Assembly (NCBI GenBank): GCA_021163645.1
Contig: JAGGTN010000020.1
Coordinates: forward strand, 1 to 50,282
DNA: 50,282 nucleotides
Reading direction: 5' to 3'
From: Candidatus Micrarchaeota archaeon
Lineage (GTDB): Archaea; Micrarchaeota; Micrarchaeia; Anstonellales; JAGGTN01
The stretch's first letter is position 1; each line of letters opens with the position of its first letter. Positions 1-39,245 of the stretch are shown piece after piece. The position numbers and the translations under genes are program-made. A model generated the notes under the pieces. The model did no database searches, was not told the DNA's origin, and worked only from the letters and a program-made list of their open reading frames with translations.

Positions 1-2
1 CC

Positions 3-3000
3 ACACCAGACAATCCTAATGATAGAGTATATCTTGAAGCTGTTGTGAATGTTGCTAATGCTGTTGAAGATTGTACTAACGGTGTAGATGACGATGGAGA
101 TGATTTGGTAGACTGTGAAGACCCTGATTGTGCGGATGATCCAGAATGTCAAGTACAATGTGAATTAGAGTATATCTCCCCAACAGAAGGTCCTGAGAGT
201 GTTGCAATTAAGGGTAGAATTTCTGGTATGGAACCGAACGAATCCTATACGATTAAAGGCTTAGACAAGAACAATAATGTTTGTTTATATGCTGAAAATA
301 CAGTAAACGATTTTGGTATTGATGAATTCGGAGAACGGATTTCCAATGCTATTTGTTATTGTGATATTTGTGCAACAGGAAAACTGAGTAATTGCACTAC
401 CAATACTTTAAGGTATAAGGTCATTCAAGAAACAACCTGTAACGACACCGTAGACAACGATTGTGATGGATTGGTAGACTGTGAGGACTCAGATTGTGCG
501 GATGATCCTGCTTGTCAAACACCAGAATGCTGCGATCTTGATGCTGTAGATGGATCAGGAGATACCCCTGGATGTGGCAGTATGTATAAATCAGGAGATA
601 CATATTACATAAATAATGCAAATGATGTAATAAAATTGTGTAATAAAACTTATACTCGTGATTTATCAGGAGATAATACTTCTGTTATTGAGATAAATGG
701 AGCAAATGTTGTTCTTGATGGAGGTGGGTCCATCATAAAGCAATCTAGTTATCCTGGACTTGTTGAAATTTATGGTGTAGTAGTAAGAGAAAGTGGTGTC
801 AATGCAACCGTTAAGAACATACATGTTGAAAACTATCCGTTCGGAATATCTAGTTATGCTAATGACACAAAAATAATTAACAACAAAATAAAAAGTGCTC
901 ATTGGGGTATTAGTACTGTTGGTTCAAATGTGATTATTTCAAATAATATTGTTTCTGAAACATACTACCAAGATTACGGTGATGGAGGCTCAGCCATTTT
1001 TGTTGGAGGAGGTGCTCAGTACTGTCAAGTCACTAATAATGAAATAACTGATGGTGTTGTTGGCATAATGCTTGGTGAAGGTGGTGCATCATTTAATAAT
1101 ATATCAAATAATAACGTCACAAACAATACATATATAGGAATAGTTCTTGGACCTATTTCATCCGTTTATAAGAATACTCTAAACAGTAATTTTGTTTGTG
1201 GTAATGGATATCAGGTTGTTCCAGAGTCTCCTGGTCTAGAAGGCGATGTTTATGATAACGGGAATAATAATACATGGATTAATACTACTTGTGATGTTGA
1301 CAGTTCTAAAACAGGAATATGCATAAATCCTTGTCCATTATCAACGAATGAAACAAGTTGTGATGATGGTATAGATAACGATAATGATGGATTGATTGAT
1401 TGTGAAGACCCTGATTGTGCGGATGATCCTGCTTGCCAAGTACCAGAATGCTGCGACCTTAATACAATGGAGGGCTGTGATAATGTTACAAAAATTAGTG
1501 ATGATTACTATGTGAATGGGGAGACTCTAATATGTCAGAATGAGTATAAACTGAGTGATCTTAATGGAGACGGTGTTTTAATAATAAATTCAAGCTCAGT
1601 TGTATTAAAATGTGAAGAGGGGACTGTACTACGAGGCGATTCAAATTGTGGCATTGGATTGGTAAATGAATATGAAGATGTTATATTGATTGGCTGTGAG
1701 TTCAAAAATTATACGACGGGTGTACTCTGGACTGGTGATAATGGACGTATTGATGCTAACTCCTTAGTATTCAATTATGTTGGTTTACAGATGTCTGGGG
1801 ATAATAACCAGATTACTTATAATATAATGGATAATAATATACAATTTGGTTTATCGATTGGTGATACTTCTGGTAATCAGTTTATTGGTAACAAGATCAG
1901 AAATAATGGTCAAGAAGGGATATTTACAGTCACTTGTAGAGGAAAACTGTGTGTGTTAGATACCTTACTCAGTACCAACGAGGTATGCTATAATCCAACA
2001 GATATAGATCTTTCTGTAAGTGTTGCGAATGCATCGGGCAATAATAAATGTGATGTTTTAGTTGATAAGGGAAGTAATAATCAGGTTACCTGTTCACAGA
2101 ATTGTTCAGCACCACCTCAACCGACCTGTGTGGTACCGACCGACGGCATGCTGATAAACGAGAGTGTAGTATTGTGTCCAGGAGTTTATAATCTGCCTAA
2201 CGGAATTAAGATAAACGCTGATAATATTGTTGTTACTTGTAATGGAACTACTTTGAACGGCACGGGTTCTGGGTACGGAGTGGAAAATACGGGGCATAGT
2301 AATGTTACTATCAAGAACTGTGTTATAATAGAATACGGATATGGTGTGTACTGGGAAAATGCGAATTATGGAACCATATTTAATACAACGGTCCAAAAAT
2401 CAGGTCAAGGTATCTATTTAAGGGAATCTTCTTATAACAATGTTCGAAATAATAACGCAAGTTACAATACTCTTAATTCAGAAAGTTGTGGGATTGCAGT
2501 TCTTGGAGATAATAACAATCTAACTGATAATGTTGCTCATAACAATGTTTACTATGGTATAATAATAGAAGGAGTTGGCAACACTGTCGCGGGTAACACT
2601 TTAAGAAATAATCTGGCAGGAGTGGTAGTTCAGAGTATCGAGAGAGTATCTTCTAATAATACTCTTGTAAACAATAATATTACTGAAAATCAGTATGGAA
2701 TAGGTATTTCTGATTCCGTTGGCAACTATATTCATAGTAATTTTGTATGTGATAATAAGAATGTGGACATAACACTTTCTGCTAATACTTCTGGTAACAC
2801 TGGTGACAACACCTGTGATAAATTACAGGATGATGATTCCAATCAGGTAACATGTAGCAAAGGATGTACCCAACAGGCATGCTCTCTCTTAGTTTCACCG
2901 TCATCAGCTTACGTTGGCGAAACAGTGAAGATAAGTGGTAGCGGTTTTGCACCAAACTCTGACATAACTCTCGAGAACAGTTGCGGTGGGACGACGACGA

Positions 3001-6000
3001 TTAAATCAGACCAAAACGGTAACTTTGTCTATCCGTTCGCTACGAACTGTGGAATGCTCGGAACATGTACCGTTAAAGCTTACGATGATTTCTGCGAGGC
3101 CACGGGCACTTACACGGTCAAAACGCAAGCTGAGGTTTGCGATGACGGTGTCGACAATGATTGTAACGGAAAAATAGACTGTGCTGACCCTGCATGCATC
3201 GGGTCTGCTGCATGTACCTTCGAGGTATCCGATTGTTTCACTATAAGAAATTCGAACGGTGGGACCTGGGTACTCAAGTCGGACATAAAAGCAAACGATA
3301 AATGTATAGAACTCGGTTTAAAGCCTGGAGCGGTGGCAGTCATTCGCTGTGAAGGTCATACAATAACCGTTAATACTACCGGTAAAACGGATGCCCATGC
3401 GATAAAAGTCTTCAGTGAACAGACAAGGGATGCTGATATTAAATTAGAGAATTGTAATATTAAAATAGTTGGTAATGGTAACGGTAATGCTGTTTGGGCC
3501 TTCAACCTTAACAAGCTTGAGCTTTATAGTATCATTGCAGACGTGGCTTCTGATAACAGTTATCCAGTTTTGGCGCAGTATATTAGGAACTTGATTGCAG
3601 AAAACCTTAACATTACTCACGATGGAGACAACGCTACGGCGTTCAAGGTGCAAGAAATATCTAATTCAATAGATGTAAACAATGTCCAACTCACCAGTTC
3701 AGCTAACATCAAACAAGGTGATTTCAGAAAGAGCGTGTTTGTGAGTGACGTACATCCAGATCCTTCTCTTCCATATAAGAAGAGAAGAATATCAAATATT
3801 TATGAGCATACTAAGTTTAATAAAGCAGTAATCCTAGATTCAAGCAACTTGGTGTTGAACGATTGGAAATTCCATGATCATCAGGATGAAGGTCTGGCGA
3901 TATTGGGTAAATCATCAAATATAGAAATGACCAGATTCAATCTTTCGAATAATAATATAGGTTTATACATCGGACAAGATGTGGAAAACGTATCTATTGA
4001 TTCTTCATACATGTGTAATAACCGTGAGAAGGATGTATTATCTGCTGATATTTCTGCATTAAATGTTGGAGCAGATGTTACGTGTACAAAATCTTATCCA
4101 GAAAACATCTGTCCGAAACAATGTCCTATGGAGGATACTGATGGTGATGGAGTGCCTGATGACCAGGACAATTGTGTAAAGGTCTACAACCCAGACCAAA
4201 AAGATATTGATGGTGATGGATTGGGTGATGCCTGCGATAATTGTGTGGATGTTTACAACCCAGACCAGATAGATAACGATGGTGACGGTCTCGGGTACGC
4301 ATGCGAGCCCGGTGACCCGAACGTTTGCGATTACACGTTCGACTGTGATGGTGACGGAGTCTGTGACGGTCCACGTTCACCAGAGGCACCTGCAGTCTGT
4401 GGCAACGGAATCTGCGAGTCTGGTGAGGATTATACTACTTGTCCCTCAGATTGTCCTGCTCCATCATGCAAAGATACAGATGAAGGAATCGATTATTATA
4501 CCTCTGGTTCAGTTATGACGTCCTCGGGAAAGGAGTTCAAAGATTACTGTTTGGATAACAACAATCTAATGGAGTATGCGTGTAACCCAGATGGTAGCGA
4601 AAGCACTTATCAATACGATTGTTCAAAAGAAGGTTTAATATGCCAGGACGGTGCATGCGTTAAAGGAGCACAATGCATTGAAGGTGCGTCTTGCTCGAGC
4701 GATGATGATTGTTATGGTGGAATATGCATATTAACTTCGTCAGATGATATATGCTACGCTAAACCTATTTACTCTGATTCTGATTGTAAGATGTTCTGTA
4801 ACAATTTCTCTGGACTCAACGAATACAAATGGGATGGTGCTGAATCATGCGAATGTTACGGTTCGATAACAGAGGATGAATGCGTTGAGTCGGCTGCACA
4901 GTATGGTTATGGATACTCTTATTTCCCTGGAACGACAACAGGCACATGCGACTGCCCAATAGAGTGTTTTGAGTTGCCTTATTATGACTGTGAAAGGACT
5001 TCTGAATGCAGATGGTGTAATGGAGCATGTTTTTCATCAGATACAATATGTCAAATAAAAGTATGTAGTGGTGATAAACCAATAACGTGCTATGATCAAG
5101 CATGTTCTGATCATCAAGAAACTTACATACGTCAGACATGCATTGCCGAGGGTGAGGAGTGTAATACAGAACTGGTTGATTGTGGTACTTCTCCTATTTG
5201 CGGTGATGATGTTTGCGAAATTTATGAAGATTATAATAACTGTCCAGAGGATTGTCCACTGCCTGAATGTTCTGGTACACAGACAGATGATTGCTCCACA
5301 TTACAGGTAACGAATCCGAAATCTGAATGCCAGAATTATTATTCAAAGTCTGGGTTCCAGTGTACTGTTAACAAGGATGCAACTGGATGTATGGATAGTG
5401 AACAATGTACAGTTAAACTTTCTGAAAAAGAGATTGTTAGCTTAGAAAAAGGGAAGGTATCAAACTTGTTTAACCTATTCACATTACCTTTCATTTTCGG
5501 TTTAGGGGTGTTTATGATGAAAAGGAAAAGGAAACTGTCTTCCTCACTTTTAGCACTGGTAGTAGGGCTGATGTTAGTAACTTTTATTATAGGAACAGTG
5601 AATGCTGCGCTTCCAGAATGCTATGGTGGTGAGTCTAAGTCATGCAAAGAGATAACAGATGAAAAGACTTGTACTAATGCTTATGTTGCCTATAACAATA
5701 CATATTACCAATGCGAATGGGATCCTGTCAACTATCTTTGTCTCCTCAATACTATACCAGAGCACGAATGTGCGCCGCCTGCCCAGCAACAAGAGATATG
5801 TGATAACGGTGTTGATGATGATAGTGACGGGTTGATTGATTGCAAAGACCCGGACTGTGCAGATGATCCAGCATGCCAAGGTTGTTCACAATACACTGAT
5901 GAAACATCGTGTAACAATGACCCAAACTGTGAATGGTATCCTGGAACTCCTGAGTATGTTGGATGCGAAGGTGAAGCTAAACATTGCTCTGTGTTCTCAA

Positions 6001-9000
6001 ACGAAGATGAATGTTTGATGCAGAAGGGATGTTCATGGTTAACCGAGTCATTGAGTTATTATGCATGCATCGCCCAAGGATACTCCTGGTGCGAGTTTGA
6101 TGGTAGATGCGATTCCGAAGGCCCATGCACTAGTATTCTCTGTAAGGCATTAGCTAAATGTGAAGACCCAGTAGATTGTTCTGAGGTAACTGATCAGTCG
6201 TCTTGTGAATCCTACAGTACCTGTGCTTGGGACTCTGATAAAGGAGTATGTTATGAAGAGGTATTGTGCAGATCATACAAAGATGAAGATTCATGCACTA
6301 CGGCGGGTTGTAAATGGAAAGTAGTCAACTACTACGCACCTTGCACAGAAGTATGCTCAGATAACACGTCTATATGTGTCAAACAAAGCACAACGTGTAT
6401 ACCTGAGAATGAGACTGTCCAACCTACACCTGTCGACTGCAACGCTTCTCCACCCTCTGGATGCACTGGTGAACCGTTGAGTTGCTCAGCTGTAAGTAAC
6501 GAGAAAGAATGTATCAACCAGATGGGTTGTAGTCCAAAGTACAAGACTATTAGTGGGTACTGTGCAGAGAAACCTTCTTCAACATGTACATCTTCACCAA
6601 GCGGTAAAGACGAGTTCTACAACGAATATCCGTACCCATCTGATATTAAACCACCTATTGATGTGTACGGTGCGCCTATATGTATAGATGATGATTATTG
6701 CGACTTAAACTGTTTCCTCAATGCTTCACCAGATTATCCAGGTGCGTTAACATATCCAATTTGGGATTCTGATTGTTGTCAAGATAATGATAAGGACGGT
6801 TATACAGGTTCAATACCTCATGAAGCACCGTCAGAATTCCAATCATATTGTACTGATGATTGTGATGATTATAATGCAAACGTTCACCCCGGAGCAGAAG
6901 AGTTGTGTAATGCTATAGATGATGACTGTGATGGTTACGTTGACATGTTCCCGGGGACGAGTGTCATGCCGAAGGACTGTAAGCAGTGGAGTAATGATGA
7001 AGCTGCGTGTTTAGAAAACTCTGACCAATGTACTTGGGCAAGCAAGTTTACCGGTTGCGACCCGGTTAAAAAAGAATGTTCTGTTTATTCTGATAACGAG
7101 TCGTGCGAATCAGACGTTTTCTGTGATTGGGTGGTTACACCTGAGACAGGTTCGTGCGTAGCACCTGTGGAATGCAAAAAACTTGAAGACGAACAAACAT
7201 GTTCCCAGTATCCGACGTGCGCATGGGAACCGAACCAACAGGTATGCTATAAGGCGGTTGACTGTACAGGTTATAAAACAGAAGCTGATTGTGAAAATGC
7301 GGGTTGTACATGGCAGGTTAAACCAGCCAGGGAGTATTGTGGTTATGATTTAGGTATAGAAACCTTCTGTAAACAATGGACAACCACTGACGAGTGTAAC
7401 AATGCATTGTACGAAGGAGTGAACGTGTGTCAAGCAACACAGGACACGAGGTGCTATAACAACTGTTATGATATAACCGATCAGGGAACATGCGATACAA
7501 CAGAGTTCTGCGCATGGGTAGGCTCAGGAGGTACCTGTTATGCTGACTGTTCTGGTTTCACTGATGAAGCAACATGTAACAAGTATGACCCATACTGTAA
7601 ATGGGATGGTAAAGAATGCGTGGACTCAGGCTTAGGAGAATGCACAGAATACACGGATGAAAAAACCTGTACTTCTAACTCACTGTGCAAGTGGAAATCT
7701 GAGACCGTAGGATCATGTCAGCCAGCACCAGAGGAAGGCGGGCCCGTACCTTTAACTCAGTACTGTTATACCGGGCCAAAAGGTACCGACGGTGTAGGTA
7801 TATGTCATGGCGGGACACAAATATGTACTTCTGGTGCATGGGGTGTTTGCGAAGATGAAGTTACTCCTCAGGTTGAATTGTGTGATGGAATAGATAACGA
7901 TTGTGACGGGAAGTATGATGAGGATTTTGATAAAGACAATGATACAATTACTATATGTGGAACGTATACAACAAATGGTTCTTCTGTAGAGCCAGATTGT
8001 AATGATAATGATCCTAACGTGTGGCATCTTATGAAAGGATATGCCGACAATGATCATGACGGTTATGGTACTGGTGAACTGTTGGATGTATGCTCAGGGT
8101 TGACATTACCTATTGGATATTCAGACATTTCTGGTGATTGTGATGATGATATGAGTGATGATCCAACTGATATAACCTGCCCATCTGATCCAAGTAATTG
8201 CACTGAGGATACTGGTGAATGTGCTATATGCATACATCCTGGAGCAATGGAAATACCGTGCGATAACATAGATCAAAACTGTAACGGACACTGGGAAAAC
8301 AAGACGTTTACTTCGCAGTTATTAGTCAAACCTGAAAAGGATAAGAAATATCATAAGTGTAGACCCTGTAGTACGATTCATTCATTGACAATAAAATATA
8401 TTGGTGATGATAATGCAACAGAGGTATATGTTTATGATAAGAAGAATAACTTATTAGGGATGTATCCAATTGTTAACAGAACATTCACAGTAACAAATCT
8501 TGCCAAACCTGAAACAATATTCCAAATAGGATCTTATATACAGTGGATTCATACAAGTTGTTCTAGACCGATCGGTCCTGGGTATTTGTTTGGCAAGCTT
8601 AAGATAATCTCATGGAATGCTGCAGATCCAAATACTTGTGATGGCGATGGAGGATCCAAGTATTATGATTGGACTGGCAGTAAATGGAAGTTCTACAATG
8701 ACTATTATCCAGATGATCTAGTCATTGGAAATAATGAAATAGGGTTGGCAGATTTTGATAATGACGGCCAAGATGAACTCATAGTTAAGGAGAAGAAATA
8801 CAGACATACTGATGATATTAATACATGGTTCTATGAATGGGATGGTGATTCATGGGTTGAATATGAACATTCGACCAATGATGGTTTGCCATTACAGGGC
8901 AGGTATGAAGTAGCAGCATGTGATATATTAGACAGTAATGGACAACCTGGTACAGATGGTGTTCCAGAGCTTATAATAACAAGAGAAGGGTTCAGTAAGG

Positions 9001-10568
9001 AAACTAAATTCTATCATTGGAATTCTGGTACTGAAAAATGGGATTATGTAACTGGTTCAACAAATACAGGCATATTCTTAAAAGGCGGTGACACTGCATG
9101 TTTTGATATTGACAATGATGGGACAAATGAATTAATCGTCAAGAAGAAGCATAAGGATAGATTCGAAGTATATGAATGGGATGATAATCATTGGACAAAT
9201 GATGGAACATATACACATGATAACTTGATAACCGGGCATAGTGAGATCGCTGGTGGTAATGTTAGAGGTTTTGAGACTGTGTATGTTGATTCAGATGACC
9301 AGCCAGATACTGATGGTGACGGTGTATCTGATTGTGTGGATTATTGTCCAGAAACTCCTGGAACAGTTTATCATGGTTGTCCTGGTGCAATCACAACCAC
9401 TGCTAACATATATGATATCGGTTGGCATGGAGTAAAAGGGCATGAACCAAGGGATGGAGCTGAAGATGATGTGTATGAATTGGATTGTGTAAATTCAGTG
9501 CTTGGTAATTCAACAATTGCATCAGAATATGGATTTAGTACAACAACGTGGAAAGATTTGACAAGCCATATATATTCTCACAAAGACAAAGAATTAAATG
9601 CGATAAGAGAAAATTGCCCCTCATGGACATGTGAGATGGATGACACAGGTCAATGTACTGTAGGCGTTCCAAATGGGGAGTATGTTGTATTCTCACCTTT
9701 TGAAACAACGCAAATGGTACCCCATGGTGAAAGAGTATGTTATCAAAAATGTACTGGTCAACCATATAAGAAAGGAAGACATTGTTGGTGGAAGAGAGAC
9801 CACAGGGAAGGTAACCATAAGTATTGTACAAATAAATGTGGGATTAAGTGGACTGTTAAACCAGAGCAGTTTGATTTCTCAGTTTATAGGCCATCGTTAA
9901 CAGTGTCAAACTCTCTTGAGACAGCGCATTTAGACTATATTAAGACGCCATGGGGTAAGTTAGTGCCAGCAGTATTCATGGGCACAATTGTGGGTTCTGA
10001 ACTGAATGTGATTCCTTCAGAATACCTAATTGAAGTGCCAGAAGGTGAAGTGATACCTGATGATATTGCAGAGGGTGATGTAGATTATATATATCCAATG
10101 TTGTTTGAAGCTGACTCTCCGTGGGAAGTCAATGTATCAATAACACCGCCAGAAGGGTATCAAGTGGCGACGGATACTGAAGCAGAGATTAATAATTCGG
10201 TTGATAGTATCGTAATTGGGATTGTCGCAAATGTAACAAATGGAACTACTCCTGCAATGATTACAATGGCAATGGTACCATCATCAATAAACTTAATGAG
10301 AGCTGTAGTGCAGGCTAAACATCCATGGGAAACAAAATGGAAAGAACAGACTATTGATGTTAAGACAACGTTCGAACCGCAACCAAAAAAGACAGAAAAA
10401 CCATTGTTTGATGCAGGTTCAATAATAACAGTAGTGGTTGCACTTCTTGTACTTGTCATGATAGGAGTATGGTTAAGGCGTAGTACTATGAAGATTAAAC
10501 CGCATTCTAATAACTCAAACCTTGTAAAAACAAAGAAAAAGGTAAAGAATAAGAGAGGAAAAAAATAA
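3..10568 (+). CDS. Giant cysteine-rich mosaic surface protein / putative adhesin, 5'-partial (frame open to window start)
   Basis: The frame is uninterrupted from nt 3; the track start at 45 is an internal GTG with no upstream stop. The translation shows five [27 protein letters not shown] modules and three clear plus one divergent block of NNxIxxN-type parallel beta-helix (PbH1/NosD-like) repeats. It also shows TSP-type-3-like DxDxDG..NC repeats, a dozen or more CxxYxDExxC..CxW repeats, MopE-like DCDDxxxxxHPGAxExC..DxDCDG motifs and FG-GAP/VCBS-like DxDNDGxxELIV repeats. It ends in a hydrophobic helix plus a Lys-rich tail. Confidence 0.9.
   Translation, partial: [3521 protein letters not shown]
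72..152 (+). repeat. Asp/Cys-rich module copy 1 ([27 protein letters not shown])
   Basis: Read directly from the translation; shares the gattgtgcggatgatcc core at DNA level with the other copies. Confidence 0.8.
438..518 (+). repeat. Asp/Cys-rich module copy 2 ([27 protein letters not shown], followed by TPECCDL)
   Basis: Read from the translation; a 23-nt exact DNA match (gattgtgcggatgatcctgcttg) with copy 3. Confidence 0.8.
1359..1439 (+). repeat. Asp/Cys-rich module copy 3 ([27 protein letters not shown], followed by VPECCDL)
   Basis: Read from the translation; same supermodule order as copy 2 (module, ECCDL, beta-helix block). Confidence 0.8.
3138..3215 (+). repeat. Asp/Cys-rich module copy 4, divergent ([26 protein letters not shown])
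   Basis: Read from the translation; precedes the fourth beta-helix-like block. Confidence 0.7.
4134..4304 (+). repeat. Thrombospondin type-3-like calcium-binding repeats inside the giant ORF
   Basis: [57 protein letters not shown]: tandem DxDxDGxxDxxDNC..NPDQxD units. Confidence 0.7.
5457..5606 (+). other. Internal hydrophobic helix / KRKRK / signal-peptide-like helix junction within the giant ORF
   Basis: [55 protein letters not shown]. The in-frame ATG ATG at 5514 is preceded by GGGGTG (5505-5510), which resembles the GGTGA-type RBS upstream of other genes in this window. Confidence 0.6.
5641..7700 (+). repeat. Array of ~20-aa three-cysteine repeats, C-x2-[YFWL]-x-[DNST]-[EDQ]-x2-C-x4-6-C-x-W
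   Basis: Examples: [209 protein letters not shown]..QCEW, plus variants. Confidence 0.75.
5799..5879 (+). repeat. Asp/Cys-rich module copy 5 ([27 protein letters not shown])
   Basis: Read from the translation; first recognisable module after the internal TM junction. Confidence 0.8.
8740..9150 (+). repeat. FG-GAP/VCBS-like repeats (beta-propeller-type) inside the giant ORF
   Basis: [43 protein letters not shown] and [18 protein letters not shown], spaced about 60 aa apart. Confidence 0.55.
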
Positions 10569-10574
10569 TTCCAT

Positions 10575-10600
10575 ATTTTATTTTTATTTTCTTTGTTTCT
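10575..10600 (+). terminator. Oligo-T tract downstream of the giant ORF (archaeal-style terminator candidate)
   Basis: tattttatttttattttctttgtttc lies just after the TAA at 10566-10568. Confidence 0.3.
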
Positions 10601-10719
10601 GAATGGCCATTGTGGCTTTCTCAAAAAGAGGAACAAATCTAAGATTAGTTGTACCTTTATTATGTGAAATCAAATCTTATTATTAAGGGGCAAGTATTAT
10701 TGAGTCTCTTTAAGATAAA

Positions 10720-11577
10720 ATGAAAAATTATGATATTTCATTTTCTACCACAACTTTTTTAAATATTAAAAGGCATAATATTAGTATGAAACAAGTATTT
10801 AAGAAAGATCTGGGAGTCGAAGAAGGTTCTAAACAAACTGAAGCCAGACAAAAAACACCAGAGAAAAATCAATTTATAAATACGAATCCAATTATGGATT
10901 TTGTAGATAAAGGCTTTTTAAATACTATTACCAGAAAGAGAAGGAAAGGGAATATAGTGGTGAGAATCGCAGAAATTGCTATGCTTACATTTGCCACAAT
11001 TACTGCAGGTATTTCGCTCACAAAGGTTCCATATTTCTATTTCATGACAAAGAACATTGATATAAAATATGGTGCTGAGGTAGCTAAAAAAGAATGGGAT
11101 TTTGACATATATGCCCAATATCTTTTATATCATTATGGGTTAACAGGGGGAATAAAAGAATATTATAAAATTATTCATGAGTATAACAGTTATGATTGTT
11201 GGCTAAAAAGGTTTAAGGAAGCAGGAATTCCGGTCATTCAGGATTTTGACTCATTGTTTACATATATAAACACCAAACCTAGAGTATTTGTACAGTTTTC
11301 TGCGAGGGGATGTCACGGATGTCTTCTCTCAATGCCTTATGTTCTTCAATATGCAAAAAAACATCATGAAGTTTTCTTTGTATACTGTAATCCCTACAAG
11401 AAAATTAATGATGAAGTTGAGGATACACTAAAATCATGGAATATTTATGCAATTCCGACATTTATCTATTTTGAAAATGGAAAGGAGGAAGTTAGGTTCA
11501 TTGGTGAAGTAAGAGATACTACTGCAATAATGAAAATTGTAAACAAAAAGATGAATGATAACGATGAACAACACTGA
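10720..11577 (+). CDS. Membrane-anchored thioredoxin-fold protein (CHGC active-site motif)
   Basis: The C-terminal 110 aa match the thioredoxin pattern: VFVQFSARGCHGCLLSMPYV..NIYAIPTFIYFENGKEEVRFIG, with CxxC and cis-Pro IPT. One hydrophobic helix (IAEIAMLTFATITAGISL) follows TRKRRKGN. The start codon is uncertain; 10783 is an alternative. Confidence 0.7.
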   Translation: MKNYDISFSTTTFLNIKRHNISMKQVFKKDLGVEEGSKQTEARQKTPEKNQFINTNPIMDFVDKGFLNTITRKRRKGNIVVRIAEIAMLTFATITAGISLTKVPYFYFMTKNIDIKYGAEVAKKEWDFDIYAQYLLYHYGLTGGIKEYYKIIHEYNSYDCWLKRFKEAGIPVIQDFDSLFTYINTKPRVFVQFSARGCHGCLLSMPYVLQYAKKHHEVFFVYCNPYKKINDEVEDTLKSWNIYAIPTFIYFENGKEEVRFIGEVRDTTAIMKIVNKKMNDNDEQH

Positions 11578-16396: not shown

Positions 16397-16471
16397 GATA
16401 TTACCTCATGATTTACTTACTGATTCATTTTATGGTTGAAGACTTATAAATTTATTGTATATTCTTATTAT

Positions 16472-17422
16472 ATGTGTGATGATGTTTTGTATAAACCAAT
16501 GCTTGCTGAGCAAGGAAGTGAGAGAGACCTTGCTAGAAAGGGATATATTTTTGAGCCGAAACTCGACGGTACTAGAGCTATATGTTATTTGAACAATGAA
16601 TCAATCACGATGATCAACAGGCGTGGTAGGGATATTACATATAGATATCCAGAATTTGATTTCTCTGGAAAGGTAAAAGCAAAGACGTGCGTTCTTGATG
16701 GAGAGATTATTGTTTATGATGCTGACGGTAATCCTGATTTTAATCTTCTTCAAGGTAGGGAACAGTTGGATAATAAGATTATGATAGAACTTAGAAGCAA
16801 AGAAAATCCTGCAACTTATGTTGTGTTTGATATATTAATGAAAAACGGTAAAGACCTAACACATCTATCATTAAAGGATAGGAAGAGGATATTGGATAGG
16901 ACAATATTGGAGAGCAAGGATGGATTTAATACCATCCAAAAGATTTTCTTCACAAAGAATGGTAGAAGCCTTTATCGGATTATTAGAAAGCATAAACTTG
17001 AAGGTGTGATGGCGAAAGATATTAATAGTAGGTATTATCAAGGAGAACGAGTTCCTGCGTGGTTGAAGATAAAATACGTTAAAACGATTGATTGCATTAT
17101 TGTAGGTTATGTTCAAGAGAAAAGGATTATATCATCGCTTGCCCTTGCTCTGTATGATAATGGGAAATTGAGATATGTTGGAAGAGTAGGGACAGGAGCT
17201 ACAGAGGAGTTTTTAGAGAGATTGTATGAGAAATTAAAGGCGATTAGAGTAAAAAAGCCATATGTTGAATATTCTGATAGCAAGGATATTAAATGGGTTA
17301 AACCACGATTCGTATGCGAAATTAAATATTTAAATTTTACTAAGAAAGGAAAATTAAGAGCGCCAGTGTTCTTGAGATTGAGAGATGATAAGCCATTAAG
17401 AGATTGTGTTATTGAAGCATGA
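16472..17422 (+). CDS. ATP-dependent DNA ligase, minimal (adenylation + OB domains only; LigD ligase-domain-like)
   Basis: Motif I EPKLDGTRA, motif III YVVFDIL, motif IV EGVMAK, motif V AWLKIK, motif VI LRAPVFLRLRDDK. The start at MCDDVLYKPMLAE is preferred over the track's TTG at 16436: an A/T-rich TATA-like box (cttataaatttatt) lies ~20-30 nt upstream. Confidence 0.85.
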   Translation: MCDDVLYKPMLAEQGSERDLARKGYIFEPKLDGTRAICYLNNESITMINRRGRDITYRYPEFDFSGKVKAKTCVLDGEIIVYDADGNPDFNLLQGREQLDNKIMIELRSKENPATYVVFDILMKNGKDLTHLSLKDRKRILDRTILESKDGFNTIQKIFFTKNGRSLYRIIRKHKLEGVMAKDINSRYYQGERVPAWLKIKYVKTIDCIIVGYVQEKRIISSLALALYDNGKLRYVGRVGTGATEEFLERLYEKLKAIRVKKPYVEYSDSKDIKWVKPRFVCEIKYLNFTKKGKLRAPVFLRLRDDKPLRDCVIEA

Positions 17423-17547
17423 ATCACGTAATACTCCATAGAATACATGTTACCATGAAGCGCAATTACAGAGTATATGACATGCAAAAATAGAAACATA
17501 ATGCAAAGGTTTAATAATTTAAAATTATTCTAAATATTGGGATTTAT

Positions 17548-18330
17548 ATGAAATCTGTATGGGATGGGTCATTATCTTTTGGTTTGGTAAATATCCCTGT
17601 TAGATTATATCCAGCTATCGAGAGCCAAGCATTAGGTTTTAGGCTCTTGCACAGTAAATGTCATACGCCTTTAAAATATAAGAGATGGTGCCCGAAATGT
17701 AAGGTTGAAGTTACATGGGATGAGGTTGTTAAGGGCATTGAAATCAGAAAAGGCGAATATTATGTTCTGACGAAGGAGGATATGGAAGAGCTTAAGCCAG
17801 AGAAGACGGATACGATTGAGATAGTAGAGTTTATTGATGCCCAACAAATTGATCCAATATATTTTAACAATCATTATTATATTGCACCTAAGGTGACTAA
17901 GGAGAAAGCATTTTTCTTGTTTAAAGAGGTTCTGCAGCTCACAGCTAAGGCGGCAATAGGTCGTTTTGTAATGCGTGAGAAACAATATGTGTGTGCGATA
18001 GAATCGTATAAACGCGGTCTGCTTCTTACAACATTGAATTATAGGTATGAGATTAGAGATATAGATAAGATACCAGAACTTAACATAGTTCCTAAGCTTA
18101 AGAAGGAAGAGCTTGCTCTTGCTAAGAAGATCATTCATAAATTATATAGAGAGGAATTTGACATGGGAGAGTTCAAGGATACGTTCGCTGAAGAACTCAA
18201 GAAGATGCTTGAGTTGAGAGAGAAGGGTAAGATTGTTAAGGTTGGTGAAGTTGGAAGAGTAAAAGGTAAGGGAAGGAAGAAAGAGAAAACACTCATTGAT
18301 ATACTCAAAGCAAGTTTGAAACAGGCATAA
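17548..18330 (+). CDS. ku: Ku protein (prokaryotic NHEJ DNA-end-binding protein)
   Basis: N-terminus MKSVWDGSLSFGLVNIPVRLYPA and ..LHSKCHTPLKYKRWCPKCKVEV match the bacterial-type Ku signature; basic C-terminal tail. Confidence 0.85.
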   Translation: MKSVWDGSLSFGLVNIPVRLYPAIESQALGFRLLHSKCHTPLKYKRWCPKCKVEVTWDEVVKGIEIRKGEYYVLTKEDMEELKPEKTDTIEIVEFIDAQQIDPIYFNNHYYIAPKVTKEKAFFLFKEVLQLTAKAAIGRFVMREKQYVCAIESYKRGLLLTTLNYRYEIRDIDKIPELNIVPKLKKEELALAKKIIHKLYREEFDMGEFKDTFAEELKKMLELREKGKIVKVGEVGRVKGKGRKKEKTLIDILKASLKQA

Positions 18331-18535
18331 GCAGGACGAAGATGCGTTAATGATGCAAAGTTATCAACACGAAGAATCAAGTTAATAAACTAGAGTAAAC
18401 ATGAGTGGGCGAATGCGTAAGGCGAAATAAAACGAAATAAAATGAATTAAAGCGAATAAAATATGTAAAAAGTAAAAGTAACTGGAAACGCACACCCAAT
18501 ATTCATTTATAAATGTTAGTATGTTGATTATTTTT

Positions 18536-19603
18536 ATGTCTCATTCAGCGATTGGGTTGCCGCTTCATCCAGGTAAAGCTCCAAGATGGTTGTTTGGAAG
18601 GATGGTTAAATTATCTAAGCTTATCTCTAAGTATATCATTAATGAGTATGGCGAACAGGTTTTTATGAAGCGTCTTGCCGACCCATTATGGTTCCAATCA
18701 TTTGGGTGCGTGCTTGGATTTGATTGGCATTCATCTGGTTTGACCACAACAACAACTGCTGCTTTAAAGATAGCTTTGGATGAAGAGAATCTCGGCATAT
18801 ATGTAGCTGGTGGCAAAGGTAGGACATCTCGCAAGACACCAGAACAGATCATTAATTATGGTGATAGGTTGAGAATATCTGAAAAGGTGAAAGAGCGTCT
18901 AGTAAGAACAAGCCGTTTGACTGCTAAGATAGATAATTCGTGCATACAGGATGGGTATCAGCTATATCATCATGTTACTATATTTGGAGCTAACCATGCA
19001 GTAGTCATCCAACAGGGTATGAATAGCGATAGGTTGTATGCGAGGAGATATCATTGGTATGACCCTCATAAGAGTATTGATGTTATCAATTCAGAAAATG
19101 AGAATATTATATCACATAGGGTTAACGGCCATGATAATGATGGGCATGGTTCTATGAATGTGCTTGACCTAGCATCTCCAAAAAGCAAAAAATCAAGAGA
19201 ATATTCGTTGGATATAATTGAAGATATGCCGAGACATCATCGCGTTCTATTGAAATATCTCACAGATAAAGAAATTCAGATGTTATCCAATTTGAGTGGT
19301 GATATGTTTGATAATTATGAGGAGCTTTTACTTGTCCATGGAATAGGTCCTAAGAAACTAAGGGCGTTGGCTCTCATATCACAGTTGGTATACGGGTCAG
19401 AATTGGATTGGAATGACCCAGTTAAATTTTCATTTGCTCATGGTGGTAAGGATGGTCATCCATTTCCAGTTGATAGGGAAACCTATGATTATAACATATC
19501 TTTATTATCAGAAGCTCTTGATTATAATAATGATATATCTGGCAATAAGAACTATGATGTTAAGCATGCGATTAAAAGGTTATATAAGATTATTAAGAAT
19601 TAA
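18536..19603 (+). CDS. Conserved hypothetical protein, DUF763-like, with a helix-hairpin-helix motif
   Basis: LPLHPGKAPRWLFGRMVKL..RLADPLWFQSFGCVLGFDWHSSGLTTT resembles my recollection of DUF763. LLLVHGIGPKKLRALAL is a classic HhH (hGIGpk) motif. The ATG at 18536 lies ~25 nt after atttataaat. Confidence 0.45.
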   Translation: MSHSAIGLPLHPGKAPRWLFGRMVKLSKLISKYIINEYGEQVFMKRLADPLWFQSFGCVLGFDWHSSGLTTTTTAALKIALDEENLGIYVAGGKGRTSRKTPEQIINYGDRLRISEKVKERLVRTSRLTAKIDNSCIQDGYQLYHHVTIFGANHAVVIQQGMNSDRLYARRYHWYDPHKSIDVINSENENIISHRVNGHDNDGHGSMNVLDLASPKSKKSREYSLDIIEDMPRHHRVLLKYLTDKEIQMLSNLSGDMFDNYEELLLVHGIGPKKLRALALISQLVYGSELDWNDPVKFSFAHGGKDGHPFPVDRETYDYNISLLSEALDYNNDISGNKNYDVKHAIKRLYKIIKN

Positions 19604-23511: not shown

Positions 23512-24459
23512 TTAGTTTTTTTTTCCTTCTTTCAATATATTCTGTTTTTCTCTTATATTGTGTTTATCCTTATATTCTTCCTTTCTTTTAATCTCATTTA
23601 ATATTAATTTTAATGCGTCTTCTGATAATTGTTCGACAAAACCCTCTTTTATAAAGTATGGAACATCGATATCTTCCTCCAAGGCAAGTTCAGCTACCTT
23701 AGTCCTATTAGATTTCTTATTTGTTATTTCTATCACATCAAACGAAAATGAAGCATATCTTAAAATCTTCTCATCTGTAATCGTTCCACTAAAATACCAT
23801 TCTCTCATAGCAGCATCTCTGTCAACTTTTATCGGTATTCTTTCAGTCCAATAGCCATGATAAAAACCTAATTTAACTGAGTACACTTTATCTTCACATA
23901 ATTCTATGATTCCCTTATTATAGTTGAAATATCTTAGTTCAATAGGTTCAACAAAATTTTTATCAATTGTGTATGAAAGAAAACCTCTTGAACAAAGATC
24001 TGTATAAACCAAAACTGTTACCCCTCTTATAATTGATTCAATTGAGTAATACTTATAATCTAAATAATTTTTGGTCTCATCAGATTCAAAAAAACTATCG
24101 AAAATTGTTTCTTTATTATACCAAGCATATGAATTAAGTTTTTTTTTCAATCTTATCGGAAACCAGACAAAATAAATTTTAATATATTGTTTTAATTTTG
24201 TTTCTTCTAATGAATTAAAATAGTACCTAAAATCACTTACATTCCTTCTAAGGACTTCTAATGTGGGATAATTTTCCATTAAATTTATATGGTTTTTCAA
24301 AAAATATTTGAAGGTAATGTAGTCTCTGTTGCTTAAATCTAACAAATCTTTATCTTTAAGATACTCAAGCAAGTACCGTCTAACCAATTCCTTGTGTTCA
24401 TAACCTCTGACATGATTCCAAATCATATTTACGAGTTGTTTATTTTTAGAACCTCCCAT
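23512..24459 (-). CDS. Hypothetical protein (orphan, Lys/Tyr/Phe-rich)
   Basis: Long uninterrupted ORF in a very AT-rich segment, divergent from the TrmB-like gene. No motif recognised. Confidence 0.5.
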   Translation of the reverse strand: MGGSKNKQLVNMIWNHVRGYEHKELVRRYLLEYLKDKDLLDLSNRDYITFKYFLKNHINLMENYPTLEVLRRNVSDFRYYFNSLEETKLKQYIKIYFVWFPIRLKKKLNSYAWYNKETIFDSFFESDETKNYLDYKYYSIESIIRGVTVLVYTDLCSRGFLSYTIDKNFVEPIELRYFNYNKGIIELCEDKVYSVKLGFYHGYWTERIPIKVDRDAAMREWYFSGTITDEKILRYASFSFDVIEITNKKSNRTKVAELALEEDIDVPYFIKEGFVEQLSEDALKLILNEIKRKEEYKDKHNIREKQNILKEGKKN

Positions 24460-24558
24460 AATCTCACTAATATTTTCTACCCTTCAGTATATTTTAATAT
24501 ATGTCACCTTACAATAAGTTGACAAAACTAATATAAATTTTGATGGTTGTATATATCT

Positions 24559-25881
24559 ATGGAGTATACATTTCTAGAAAAGTTAGGTATTACTAAAAAT
24601 GAGGCTAGAATATATATAACTCTCATAAACGAAGGACAAATGACTATAGGTAATATAATAAAAAAAGTAGGACTTCATAGAGGTTCTACTTATAATATTA
24701 TTCAAAGGTTGATTGAGAAAGGTTTAATTTCATTTGTGGATAAAGAAAATAAAAGATATTATCAAGCTTCAAATCCAAGAATATTATTTAGTTTAATAGA
24801 GAAAAAGGAAAAAGAGTTAGACTTAGAAAAGAGATATATAATAAAACTAATTCGTGAAATTAAAGATAGAAAAACAATTGCTAATAAATCGGTTGATATA
24901 AGTGTAACGTTGGGATTGAAAGCATTTAAGAACTTCTTTCGAGAAATGCTGAATGAATTAGAATCCACTGGCGATGAATATTATTTTATCGGGAATTCAA
25001 ATGAGTTGATAAGACATCTAGGGGTAAATTATTATCAGTATACGCAAAATAGAAAAGCAAAATTAGGAATTAAATCTAAGATAATTCTTGGAGAAAGTTC
25101 AAGAAAAAGTCAGGAGAAGGTTGTGGGTAAGGTTCGGTATGTTGAAGAAAATATTATTACTCCAGCTTCTACATGGATGTATAAAAATAAGATTATAATC
25201 GTTGTTTGGGATATTAATCCAATTATTATATTAACTATAAAGAGTGAATCAGTTTTTAGATCATATAAACGATTTTTTGATGTATTATGGAATAAACCAA
25301 CATATTTTTCAGATCTGGAAAATTTTGAAGGTGAATATATTAGTTTAATGAAGAATTGTAGATATTTGAAGATAATGTCAAGATTGAATTCAGTTCCTTT
25401 TATAATATATCCAAAAAAAGAAAATGAATTCGTAGAAATGCGTAGATACGTAAGGAGAAAAAGGAAAACTTTTTACAGCCTAAAGTTTGATGTAAAAGTG
25501 TTAAAGATGTATAAAAGGTTATGGAAAAGAAAAATACCAACTTATTTTTTAATAAATCTAAGTGGAATTGAGTTTTTATTTAATATTATGATGAAAAAGA
25601 AAGGATACAAATGGATTGTAGATTATGTAAATAAATTAAAAAAAGAAATTAAAAGATATAATGCAAAGGTTAAAGTAATAAAATATACTCCAATATTTAT
25701 TTATATCAGTCATAACAAATTAATAAAAGTGTTATCAAATCGTTCTGAAAATATCTATGGAATGATTAGTCTTGACCCTAGAATAATAAATGAATATAAT
25801 AATATTTTTGATGCTTATTTTGATATGGGCGAAGATATCTTTGATTTTCTTGAAGAATACTTAAAAAAAAATAAGAAATGA
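24559..25881 (+). CDS. TrmB-family transcriptional regulator with an extended C-terminus
   Basis: N-terminal winged HTH LEKLGITKNEARIYITLINEGQMTIGNIIKKVGLHRGSTYNIIQRLIEKGLISFV..RYYQASNP. The C-terminal half appears to repeat the effector-like domain. ATG at 24559 preferred over TTG at 24547. Confidence 0.7.
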   Translation: MEYTFLEKLGITKNEARIYITLINEGQMTIGNIIKKVGLHRGSTYNIIQRLIEKGLISFVDKENKRYYQASNPRILFSLIEKKEKELDLEKRYIIKLIREIKDRKTIANKSVDISVTLGLKAFKNFFREMLNELESTGDEYYFIGNSNELIRHLGVNYYQYTQNRKAKLGIKSKIILGESSRKSQEKVVGKVRYVEENIITPASTWMYKNKIIIVVWDINPIIILTIKSESVFRSYKRFFDVLWNKPTYFSDLENFEGEYISLMKNCRYLKIMSRLNSVPFIIYPKKENEFVEMRRYVRRKRKTFYSLKFDVKVLKMYKRLWKRKIPTYFLINLSGIEFLFNIMMKKKGYKWIVDYVNKLKKEIKRYNAKVKVIKYTPIFIYISHNKLIKVLSNRSENIYGMISLDPRIINEYNNIFDAYFDMGEDIFDFLEEYLKKNKK

Positions 25882-25909
25882 ATATAAAAAACATAAGAGT
25901 TAGAATCAA

Positions 25910-26493
25910 TTATCCACCTATGCTTTTATTTTCTTGCTCTGCTTGCATCTTTTTTATTATTTCATTTAAATCGCATATGGTTCCGCCACTCACTTGGAAT
26001 TTATCATCGCCAAAGTTGTTTAATTCACAATGATAATTGGTTTTGCCTTCTATCTTCTCTGGTGATACTGCTTCGGTTGCCGTTTCATTCCCAGTTATGC
26101 TCTTGTTCATCTCCATTTTTATCCAATCACAGCCAGGAATAGTTTCCTTTCCTTTGGATGATTTCAGGTATACCGTGTCGCCTTTTATGATTTCAACAGC
26201 AGACATTTGGTCAGATGTTATCTCTATCCTGATATCCTTACCTTTTACATACATAATGGCATGTGTTAGTTGTCCTGATCGCTGATCTGTGTAATCAAAT
26301 GTACACTTAACTGGTTTACCTAGGCGATTATTGATTTCCATGCCATTGTATCCAAATTCTGTGTTTGGGTTTGATTTATATCTTGATTTTGTGTTTCATT
26401 TGTATTAGATGTATTTGTTCCTCCTGTGCATCCCAGGGTCATTAATGATATGAACGTTAACCCTAAGAATAGGTATATGTATGTTTTTTTCAT
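25910..26493 (-). pseudogene. Lipoprotein gene split by a frameshift (signal peptide/lipobox ORF plus 143-aa domain ORF)
   Basis: From 26493, the minus strand reads MKKTYIYLFLGLTFISLMTLGCTGGTNTSNTNETQNQDINQTQTQNLDTMAWKSIIA*. The 143-aa ORF (25910-26341) is in another frame, and its frame stays open upstream (..NPNTEFGYNGMEINN). The two overlap at ATGGCATGG. Confidence 0.5.
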
Positions 26494-30861: not shown

Positions 30862-31341
30862 ATGGCAGAAATAATTATCAATGCGATGGTTGAAGGAGGA
30901 TCGGCATCAGCCGGGCCACCGTTAGGTCCTGCATTAGGTCCTTTAAAAGTGAATATTGGGCAGGTAATTGCTAAGATTAATGAAAAAACGAAAGGATTTA
31001 AAGGTATAAAGGTTCCTGTAAAGGTAATAGTTGATAAAGACTCGAAGGAATTCCGTATTGAAGTAGGTAGTCCACCAGTATCCGAACTTCTCAAGAAAAA
31101 AGCAGGTATTGAAAAAGGTAGAAAAGAAAAAGGCGAGGTGGTAGGAGATATAAAACTTGAATCTGTTATTGAATTAGCGAAATCAATCAGGGATAAATCT
31201 TTATCAAGAACTTTAAAATCAACAACAAAAGAGGTTTTGGGTACATGTATTTCATTGGGTTTAAATTGTAATGGCAAACCAGCATTAGAGGTTATAAAGG
31301 AGATTAACGATGGAAAACATGACACCTTGTTTTCTGAATGA
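30862..31341 (+). CDS. rpl11: Ribosomal protein L11 (uL11)
   Basis: MAEIIINAMVEGGSASAGPPLGPALGPLKVNIGQVIAKINEKT..FRIEVGSPPVSELLKKKAGIEKG. The ATG at 30862 is preceded by GGGTGA. Confidence 0.9.
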   Translation: MAEIIINAMVEGGSASAGPPLGPALGPLKVNIGQVIAKINEKTKGFKGIKVPVKVIVDKDSKEFRIEVGSPPVSELLKKKAGIEKGRKEKGEVVGDIKLESVIELAKSIRDKSLSRTLKSTTKEVLGTCISLGLNCNGKPALEVIKEINDGKHDTLFSE

Positions 31342-36257: not shown

Positions 36258-36270
36258 GGAGGTTTTTGAA

Positions 36271-37872: not shown

Positions 37873-37956
37873 AAATTAAAATAAGCATAAATAAAAATAT
37901 AGAAAAGGAAACCAAATTAAAAGCCAAAATAAATTTGAAAAATAAAAAATCATGTG

Positions 37957-39168: not shown

Positions 39169-39245
39169 CGAGAAAATAATGGAAAACAAAATAGGCATAA
39201 GGAAAAAAATAATTTAACATGAAATAAATATGGAGATTGATATTA

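Follow-up and report, generated by a model that had tools for sequence, protein, structure and literature searches.

A giant mosaic surface protein with a central membrane hairpin, a candidate two-armed adhesin of a small-genome archaeon

Contig JAGGTN010000020.1 of Candidatus Micrarchaeota archaeon (GenBank assembly GCA_021163645.1), analyzed as a stretch of 50,282 nucleotides and called the window below, begins inside a giant open reading frame (ORF) of more than 10 kb whose translation is a mosaic of surface-type modules. The question raised by this locus is what such a gene makes: a genuine protein or the product of faulty assembly, one chain or two, an adhesin, an enzyme or a building element of the cell envelope. 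The interpretation preferred here, with moderate confidence, is a giant membrane surface adhesin, stabilized by Ca2+ and rich in disulfides, whose two arms would derive from two fused surface-protein cistrons. An earlier sequence-only reading had described a mosaic surface protein; absent from it was a hairpin in the middle of the chain, in which a transmembrane helix and a KRKRK stretch are followed by a signal-peptide-like helix ending in VNA/A (the slash marks the predicted cleavage position). The protein carries a conserved central hairpin and is more than a single ectodomain. Coordinates are window positions, and features lie on the forward strand unless marked otherwise; residue numbers follow the window frame (residue 1 at nucleotide 3) rather than the full-length gene.

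The giant gene and its support in other assemblies

Translation of positions 3-10568 yields 3,521 codons and a stop (10566-10568) with zero internal stops, in agreement with the single open frame and the length in excess of 3,507 residues that had been read from the sequence. A mechanical ORF list gives the same gene as 45-10568, because the frame is open past the 5' end of the window, whose edge truncates the gene. By anchoring on the next downstream gene, the same locus was found elsewhere: at least four further contigs, drawn from three samples (ENA ERZ23499514, JGI 3300017593 and JGI 3300016457), carry the gene, and over its last 9,849 nt each of these shows 1-4 mismatches, no indels and an open frame. 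Two contigs, each with more than 3 kb of upstream sequence, hold the complete gene of 3,649 amino acids; 128 N-terminal residues are therefore absent from the window. Polymorphism across the assemblies is confined to eight single-nucleotide sites, five synonymous and three non-synonymous.

The anatomy of the junction described below, which looks as if one gene stopped there and another began, could in principle reflect a chimeric assembly or a sequencing error that erased the stop between adjacent genes, and the tendency of assemblies to be interrupted within the 5' portion of the gene is in keeping with such an origin. Yet the junction is identical to the base in five assemblies that represent three samples, a 37%-identical homolog recovered in another study is likewise uninterrupted at this point, and DNA repeats within the gene are no more than 80% identical; an artifact of this kind is effectively refuted. 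Repeat-driven misassembly, against which the sequence-only reading had advised a check, is rejected on the same concordance and low repeat identity, and frameshifts likewise find no support, the other contigs being free of indels and stops. Recent horizontal transfer was considered as the source of the higher GC content of the gene and rejected, since GC at third codon positions (GC3) equals that of the neighboring genes (0.303 versus 0.301). Given the concordant contigs, the open frames and the low repeat identity, the giant ORF is a real, native gene of ~11 kb and neither a chimera nor a one-off lost stop.

The 5' part of the gene is a break point in independent assemblies (window positions 1-720 and the contig ends at loci L001 and L003): the L003 contig begins 36 nt after the window start and L001 breaks at residue 227. 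A 125-nt repeat family lies in this part of the gene, at 63-187, 429-553 and 1350-1474, near the acidic repeats described below, and the breaks near the acidic-repeat region suggest a repeat or a strain-variable stretch. Three reverse-strand ORFs of 101-158 amino acids (4816-5139, 7752-8057 and 10160-10636) lie within or overlap the giant gene; no gene is called at these positions in the other assemblies, and they are probably spurious.

The central membrane hairpin

Hydrophobic segments occur at residues 1819, 1844 and 3466. KRKRK separates the first from the second, and a Lys/Arg-rich tail follows the third. The first two form the hairpin, which reads ..NLFTLPFIFGLGVF-MM-KRKRK-LSSSLLALVVGLMLVTFIIGTVNA/ALPEC.. 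in the window gene. Internal transmembrane helix 1 (5457-5519, residues 1819-1839, ..LPFIFGLGVFMM) has the character of a C-terminal anchor and is the stretch best conserved with P0005, a protein (GCA_003661045.1, contig QMVJ01000144.1, locus L013, positions 38-4138) that is collinear with residues ~1300-2310 over 896 alignment columns at 37% identity. A GGGGTG Shine-Dalgarno (SD)-like motif (5505-5510) stands 3 nt before the ATG at 5514 and 6 nt before the ATG at 5517, and with these codons begins a signal-peptide-like unit that is at the same time transmembrane helix 2 (5514-5606, residues 1838-1868): Met-Met, KRKRK, a 20-residue hydrophobic core and V-N-A/A. Judged by eye, the signal-like half has the features of a Sec class 1 signal peptide, namely an initial Met, basic residues in the n-region, a hydrophobic core and the -3/-1 pattern V-x-A, both in the window gene (MM-KRKRK-LSSSLLALVVGLMLVTFIIG-TVNA/A) and in P0005 (MM-RKKK-LPITLLLLMVGLMFSVNIVSA/A), whose junction also lies within a continuous ORF (..VPFMFGLGVFMMRKKKLPITLLLLMVGLMFSVNIVSA/AGG..). 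Helix 1 was compared with the archaeosortase/exosortase signals PGF-, PEF-, PEP- and PTPA-CTERM, and a role as a CTERM sorting signal was rejected: it scores 15.1 bits against PTPA-CTERM (cutoff 29) and 9.6 against PEP_CTERM (cutoff 16), and it is internal rather than terminal.

Few stretches of the P0005 alignment are as well conserved as the hairpin, and conservation extends to the nucleotide level. An 18-nt block (5502-5519, TTA GGG GTG TTT ATG ATG) is identical in the window gene and in L013, and nowhere else in the alignment do four or more consecutive codons agree; just upstream of the block N, F, F and G are conserved with different codons. In each gene GGG and GTG belong to the less used codons; identity at the four codons has a probability of about 0.01, and the choice of GGG and GTG by both genes one of about 2e-4. 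The GGGGTG motif occurs twice in the 10.5 kb, and only M1838 and M1839 among the 36 in-frame ATGs of the giant ORF are preceded by an SD-like motif. The organism uses such signals elsewhere: GGTG, GAGGT or GGGGT lies at a similar distance before about half of the other window genes, the remainder looking leaderless. In archaea, SD motifs are typical of distal operon cistrons and can drive independent translation (PMC7531240).

The anatomy of the junction together with its conservation in P0005 argues for a fusion of two cistrons whose start signals are under selection. The hairpin would be the C-terminal anchor of one former cistron welded to the N-terminal Sec signal peptide of the next, with the SD motif, the Met-Met start and the V-x-A/A site of the downstream cistron apparently still in place. 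With no stop in between, translation must yield the full-length chain; the conserved SD motif, Met-Met and V-x-A/A suggest that arm B, the part following the hairpin, is additionally made alone, or that the chain is cut after A1868.

Taken further, these signals raise the possibility that the ORF is a dual-output gene or "polyprotein" that yields two surface proteins instead of one chain, an extension of the adhesin interpretation that is held only tentatively. In one route, the internal SD motif and the M1838/M1839 start would give a 1,684-residue protein B with its own cleavable signal peptide; in the other, signal peptidase would cut after V-N-A1868, leaving the hairpin on arm A and the C-terminal transmembrane helix on arm B. 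The retention of GGGGTG, Met-Met, the basic n-region, the hydrophobic core and small -3/-1 residues in both the window gene and P0005 points in this direction, as do the singular position of the SD-preceded ATGs, the use of SD motifs by this organism, the established SD-dependent initiation at distal archaeal cistrons (PMC7531240), and the proteins P0002 and P0003, evidence that members of the C-terminal family normally carry a signal peptide and a transmembrane anchor. Against it, zero stops separate the halves in six of six sequences examined, so that full-length translation must occur; the ~20-residue core of helix 2 is long for a cleaved signal peptide and fits an uncleaved signal-anchor; arm B of P0005 is without a C-terminal transmembrane helix, so that cleavage would release it; and the signal peptide was read by eye from the sequence. 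The still more specific proposition of a conserved "two-in-one" gene, in which welded cistrons with a selected SD motif, Met-Met and cleavage site give either a linked two-armed protein plus a separate arm B or two chains after cleavage, is rather doubtful.

Viral polyproteins with internal signal peptides, such as those of flaviviruses, place a transmembrane anchor before a signal sequence, and signal peptidase separates their luminal domains. The window gene resembles them in having one ORF in which a transmembrane anchor is directly followed by a signal sequence with an A-x-A-type site. It differs from them in being a cellular archaeal gene whose cleavage site is only predicted, and in an internal SD motif and ATG that suggest independent initiation, a route that these viral polyproteins do not use.

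Further hairpins of this kind were not found: a search of representative proteins gave six matches, none over the transmembrane region, pattern and protein scans of viral contigs were empty, and a scan of genome contigs returned two true relatives only, neither with an internal hairpin.

Membrane topology of the two arms

In the adhesin interpretation, arm A (residues 1-1818) would lie outside the cell and consist of beta-helix blocks spaced by acidic repeats, thrombospondin type-3 (TSP3) repeats and Cys-rich modules. A hairpin of transmembrane helix 1, a cytoplasmic KRKRK loop and transmembrane helix 2 would join it to arm B (residues 1869-3465), also outside, which comprises three-Cys arrays, MopE motifs, a four-repeat FG-GAP-like unit and a C-terminal domain; a third transmembrane helix with its Lys-rich tail would anchor the C-terminus. 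The outward orientation of both Cys-rich arms is predicted from the positive-inside rule, which puts the KRKRK loop and the Lys-rich tail in the cytoplasm, and from the distribution of the Cys residues. Of the 235 Cys of the protein, 119 are in arm A and 116 in arm B; these, the 52 N-glycosylation sequons and the Ca2+- and adhesion-type domains on either side of the hairpin point to an extracellular location of both arms.

Modules of arm A

Near its N-terminal edge in the window, arm A has an acidic double-disulfide repeat (72-149, residues 24-49), teneurin C-rich-like and Ca2+-binding by profile, a small Cys-containing domain (150-437, residues 50-145) with ~30-35% identical homologs in many short proteins, and a second acidic repeat (438-515, residues 146-171). 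Beta-helix block 1 follows (516-1358, residues 172-452; NNxIxxN-type repeats), then acidic repeat 3 (1359-1436, residues 453-478), beta-helix block 2 (1437-2117, residues 479-705) and, with no acidic repeat before it, beta-helix block 3 (2118-2897, residues 706-965). An Ig-like domain (2892-3122, residues 964-1040) is a weak IPT/TIG match of 14.9 bits, below cutoff. Acidic repeat 4 (3138-3215, residues 1046-1071) precedes a putative divergent beta-helix block 4 (3216-4127, residues 1072-1375), which has no Pfam match and whose P0005 equivalent is a weak Beta_helix match of 20 bits.

On the whole protein the beta-helix families are clear, with Pfam Beta_helix (PF13229) and NosD (PF05048) at 70.6 and 70.7 bits (cutoffs 25.9 and 23.6) and the NCBIfam para_beta_helix repeat TIGR03804 at 58.7 bits. 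When the blocks were rescanned against Pfam one by one as lone segments, block 2 (Beta_helix 35 bits, NosD 25 bits) and block 3 (NosD 64, Beta_helix 54 bits over residues 700-965) passed, and block 1 fell below the cutoff. The acidic repeat is the described NCBIfam repeat NF033662 (acid_disulf_rpt; 83.3 bits against a cutoff of 41), present in five copies at residues 24, 146, 453, 1046 and 1933 and preceding three of the four beta-helix blocks. Thus the beta-helices of the sequence-only reading stand, its Asp/Cys module proves to be a known repeat related to the teneurin C-rich Ca2+ domain, and its statement that every block is introduced by such a module holds for three blocks and fails for block 3.

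Acidic repeat 3 aligns with residues 834-869 of the C-rich domain of Teneurin-4 (PDB 7plp; E=1e-5). With the Ca2+ ligands of that domain taken from the literature (PMC9058538), all nine side-chain ligands are kept in repeat 3 (E835, D840, D843, N844, D845, D847, D851, D854 and D856), whereas the equivalent of C858, one of the six Cys, is missing; two disulfides, rather than the three of teneurin, and up to three Ca2+ per repeat would fit. The arrangement also differs from that in teneurin, where the domain occurs once, beside the TTR domain, and does not recur as a spacer before beta-helix blocks.

An alternative is a mainly enzymatic protein, whose beta-helix blocks would be polysaccharide lyases or glycosidases acting on a host wall or an extracellular polymer, the rest of the chain serving only to target and anchor them. 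Many beta-helix domains are carbohydrate-active enzymes, and attack on cell walls has been connected with giant genes in other episymbionts and in predators; the four right-handed beta-helix blocks here belong to a NosD/pectate-lyase-like superfamily. The searches of Pfam and NCBIfam nevertheless gave no catalytic family, only the generic Beta_helix, NosD and para_beta_helix models, no PDB sequence match to an enzyme was obtained, and beta-helices serve as often as passive stalks of adhesins, so that an enzymatic role is considered unlikely.

C-terminal to the beta-helix region are TSP3 Ca2+-binding repeats (4131-4310, residues 1377-1436), underlain by a 69-nt tandem DNA repeat (4134-4306). 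In a phmmer search of PDB sequences this stretch matches thrombospondin-2 and COMP (E=1e-24, 88 bits), and it reaches 23.9 bits with Pfam TSP_3 (PF02412), 1.1 below the cutoff of 25, which bears out the TSP3-like repeats noted earlier. It shares with the type-3 wire of thrombospondin and COMP (PDB 1yo8, 2rhp and 3fby) consecutive DxDxDGxxDxxDNC motifs and the same disulfide and Ca2+-ligand pattern. It differs in having ~2.5 repeats plus an isolated motif at residue 3102, and in lacking the C-terminal lectin-like domain and EGF domains; Pfam gave neither TSP_C nor EGF, and the PDB matches cover only the type-3 wire, so that the protein is not a member of the thrombospondin family.

Next come two CG(N/D)GxCE..CPxDCP motifs (residues 1466-1485 and 1733-1752), at the positions where the earlier reading had recognized such motifs; the Cys-rich region that they delimit (4398-5258) gave no family match in the profile search. 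Within it, a module of ~65 residues (4467-4661, residues 1489-1553) follows the pattern CxD[ST]DxGxDYY...C...EY.C...C..G.C.DGAC. It has no Pfam or NCBIfam match and recurs many times in the DPANN-type proteins P0010 and P0020, the latter from a Nanoarchaeota metagenome-assembled genome (MAG), and it looks like an undescribed repeat family. Arm A ends with a pre-membrane Cys module (5265-5432, residues 1755-1810) that is 51-62% identical to the proteins P0006 and P0007, in which no membrane segment follows it.

Modules of arm B and the C-terminus

Arm B opens with acidic repeat 5 (5799-5885, residues 1933-1961) and a first three-Cys repeat array (5883-6536, residues 1961-2178) of the form C-x2-[YF]-x-[DN]E-x2-C-x4-6-C-x-W. 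A region with four Cu-binding_MopE stretches (6858-8288; best at residues 2286-2314, with CxxIDxxC at residues 2302, 2627 and 2753) encloses the second array (6978-7694, residues 2326-2564). The two arrays together hold 12-13 copies of the three-Cys repeat, and the four MopE stretches (PF11617, metal-binding motifs by profile) score 54.6-59.7 bits against a cutoff of 27, so that the array and the MopE-like motifs seen in the earlier reading are both substantiated.

The PSI-like label that it gave to the Cys repeats found no support in Pfam. PSI (PF01437) gave no Pfam match at E<=5 on the repeat segments, which carry 3-4 Cys where PSI has eight, and the Pfam match that was obtained is to Paramecium_SA (PF01508; 23.2 bits against a cutoff of 21.2, residues 2520-2573). 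With PSI and the Paramecium surface antigen the repeats share a length of ~33-65 residues and the spacing C..C..C-x-W. In an AlphaFold2 (AF2) model of array 2, of low confidence (mean predicted local distance difference test score, pLDDT, 61), each repeat consists of short helices and a beta-hairpin. Plexins and semaphorins recur among the Foldseek matches of this model at non-significant values (E 0.13-0.7, probability <=0.57, ~53 columns), and a PSI-like nature of the three-Cys repeats is possible but unproven.

Beyond the MopE region are a beta-sandwich insert (8367-8624, residues 2789-2874, pLDDT 70-90), present in P0001 and absent from P0002 and P0003, and four FG-GAP-like repeats (8655-9287, residues 2885-3095; ..EIGLADFDNDGQDELIVK..) with a beta-propeller-like model. 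One repeat reaches 26.2 bits with Pfam FG-GAP (cutoff 22.1), and FG-GAP_3 gives 26.2 against a cutoff of 26.9; in an alignment of five family members four repeats are visible, versus the seven of a closed propeller. Like the FG-GAP (VCBS) propellers of integrin alpha chains, these repeats have DxDxDG Ca2+ loops and a hydrophobic strand pattern, and integrin alpha headpieces are among the Foldseek matches. Unlike integrin alpha, the unit has no leg domains, and the best matches of its low-confidence model (mean pLDDT 53) are BBS7 and the EPTP repeats of LGI1; generic propellers are matched at template modeling scores of at most 0.3, and integrins rank 22nd or lower (E ~5e-4, scores of at most 0.2). 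The earlier claim of FG-GAP-like repeats is thus sustained by the Pfam score and left borderline by their number, and the description of the protein as integrin-style over-reads these four repeats, whose model matches generic beta-propellers and not integrins specifically.

A single TSP3-like motif (residues 3102-3115) and a conserved C-terminal domain (to ~residue 3455) together occupy 9306-10367 and are common to P0001-P0003 and L005. The chain ends, as previously described, with a C-terminal transmembrane helix (residues ~3472-3491) and a Lys/Arg-rich tail (residues 3492-3521), located by hydropathy at 10416-10565.

Homologs and modular shuffling

Searches of 5.8 billion proteins, in which all matches were at most ~1.75 times the query length, gave 3-5 partial homologs of the giant protein and no characterized family that covers the whole of it, and the statement that the combination of modules matches no described family has held up. 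The C-terminal ~700 residues, made up of a MopE-type motif, a conserved QLLVK linker, the four FG-GAP-like repeats, a TSP3-like motif, the conserved domain and the transmembrane helix, were well matched by only three proteins (40-53% identity). P0002, a 777-residue protein of a Pacearchaeota MAG, is a complete stand-alone version of this module with a signal peptide and a transmembrane anchor, and the module is also found within the other mosaics P0001, P0003 and L005. A profile of the family has no match among PDB sequences and no Pfam relative. Its nearest relatives are in Woesearchaeota and Pacearchaeota MAGs, and the C-terminal ~700 residues constitute a rare stand-alone family that has so far been seen only in Woesearchaeota/Pacearchaeota-type sequences.

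At L005 (Woesearchaeota B72_G16, QMQO01000009.1, 2-5164) there is a long mosaic ORF of at least 1,720 residues, cut by the contig start, with TSP3-like repeats, a weak NosD stretch, MopE motifs and the C-terminal family in another order and without an internal hairpin. The P0005 ORF is open at the 5' end of its contig, its arm B is without a C-terminal transmembrane helix, and a gene for a small membrane protein follows it (L013, 4155-4526). Its contig may come from a DPANN archaeon and be mis-binned, or may hint at a link to a host. The giant protein is accordingly a mosaic of shuffled modules, the exact order of which, including the hairpin, is common only to P0005. What is new is the combination of modules, the rare C-terminal family and the anchor/signal-peptide hairpin with its internal SD motif and start; every well-supported module is a described family, and giant DPANN surface proteins are a known kind.

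This shuffling bears on a further alternative, that the protein is a structural component of the envelope, S-layer-like or sheath-forming, which builds or tethers the surface of the cell that makes it. Membrane anchorage, the 52 sequons, the Ca2+-binding modules, the housekeeping chromosomal neighborhood and the native codon usage are all consistent with such a role. A rare mosaic whose modules are shuffled among relatives is unlike the conserved S-layer proteins, there is no match to an S-layer family, and the homologs are too few for a core envelope component; a structural role of this kind is therefore very unlikely.

Proposed function and its weighing

The set of beta-helix stalks, TSP3 wires, teneurin-type Ca2+ clasps and a propeller-like unit is of adhesin type. 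On this module set adhesion is the most likely function, and the protein would act as an adhesin, stabilized by Ca2+ and cross-linked by disulfides, with glycans or proteins of a second cell or of some other surface as its ligands. Its partner is probably a cell, such as a host; this is the weakest step, drawn by analogy with the roles suggested for the giant proteins found in other members of the DPANN archaea (PMC10266531).

The best known of these for comparison are the SPEARE proteins of nanohaloarchaea (SVXNc_0300 and BNXNv_0298; 8,880-9,409 residues), which contain arrays of Ig/FN-like domains, have a proposed role in cell contact, and possess a VirB4/TraG-like ATPase domain along with an adjoining gene for a secretion ATPase (PMC10266531). 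Like them, the window gene is one very long ORF of a small archaeal genome, and its product has a membrane anchor and a huge ectodomain of adhesion-type repeats. It differs in its module set (beta-helix, TSP3, acidic disulfide and three-Cys repeats with a central transmembrane hairpin), in the absence of any ATPase family match and in a downstream gene that encodes a thioredoxin-fold protein. Without a VirB4-like ATPase domain or an ATPase neighbor, the giant protein is not of the SPEARE type.

Several points weigh against the adhesin interpretation. The whole of it was built from sequence and models, and the topology from hydropathy and charge rules only; both AF2 models have low confidence, with a mean pLDDT of 53 for the FG-GAP-like unit and 61 for array 2. 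Export of arm A would need an N-terminal signal peptide, and the sequence read here starts after the first 128 residues. The beta-helix blocks at residues 172-452 and 1072-1375 are under the Pfam cutoff as lone segments, and beta-helix domains can be enzymes instead of binding modules. As to the hairpin, it is seen in two lineages, the window gene and the single homolog P0005, the latter on a 4.6-kb contig that was binned as Methanosarcinales, and the synonymous-site argument for selection on the start signals comprises four codons only. Finally, a DPANN placement (Woesearchaeota/Pacearchaeota-like) is probable from the nearest homologs of one module, not from a phylogeny.

Genomic neighborhood

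The remainder of the window is ordinary chromosome. Ribosomal S3Ae, the S13/S15 N-terminal domain, Spt5-NGN and GatD/GatE identify the organism as an archaeon, and housekeeping genes include those for FtsZ, GluRS, Ku with an ATP-dependent ligase, and a MacB/FtsX-type ABC system. The RNA search of the window found no tRNA and no Rfam family, and no housekeeping gene is held in common with the L005, L006 and L013 contigs.

Located 151 nt 3' of the giant gene is a gene (10720-11577) for a membrane-anchored thioredoxin-fold protein with a basic stretch, a transmembrane helix and a Trx domain with a CHGC motif, a possible disulfide oxidoreductase for the 235-Cys giant. Its standing as a conserved partner was rejected, as the genes after the L005 and L006 homologs are unrelated.

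Genes for an ATP-dependent DNA ligase, Ku and DUF763 are consecutive at 16436-19603, forming a pair of the non-homologous end-joining type in a small-genome archaeon. Against a GC content of ~33-36% in the window, positions 24001-26000 drop to 0.255; the dip spans the gene for a 444-residue TrmB-family regulator (24547-25881) and unannotated ORFs, and may be a small island. Other surface-related genes occur: a predicted secreted or surface beta-propeller protein of 530 residues with a signal-peptide-like N-terminus (31310-32902), a second cell-surface-related cluster (35093-40463) of a PadR regulator, an ABC ATPase, a secreted CARDB/Ig-like protein (36271-37872) and two MacB/FtsX permeases, and, on the reverse strand, a predicted secreted or surface protein of 740 residues with a weak MG2 (alpha-2-macroglobulin) match (47275-49497).

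Significance for episymbiotic archaea

A gene architecture in which a conserved hairpin bears an internal start and a signal-peptide signature is unusual for a prokaryote and, if functional, would show operon neighbors fusing yet keeping independent expression or export. Were the gene indeed a two-in-one, it would be a cellular prokaryotic counterpart of the viral membrane polyprotein and would set the ratio of the parts of a host-attachment apparatus. Episymbiotic small-genome archaea need cell contact, and few attachment proteins have been pinned down outside the nanohaloarchaea. The locus described here, recovered in several assemblies, offers a concrete attachment candidate with a domain map, comprising a predicted heavy dependence on Ca2+ (by way of TSP3, acidic repeats and FG-GAP-like loops), 235 Cys and two arms. 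The map leads to predictions: ethylenediaminetetraacetic acid (EDTA) or reductants should abolish attachment, and antibodies to either arm should label the sites of contact.

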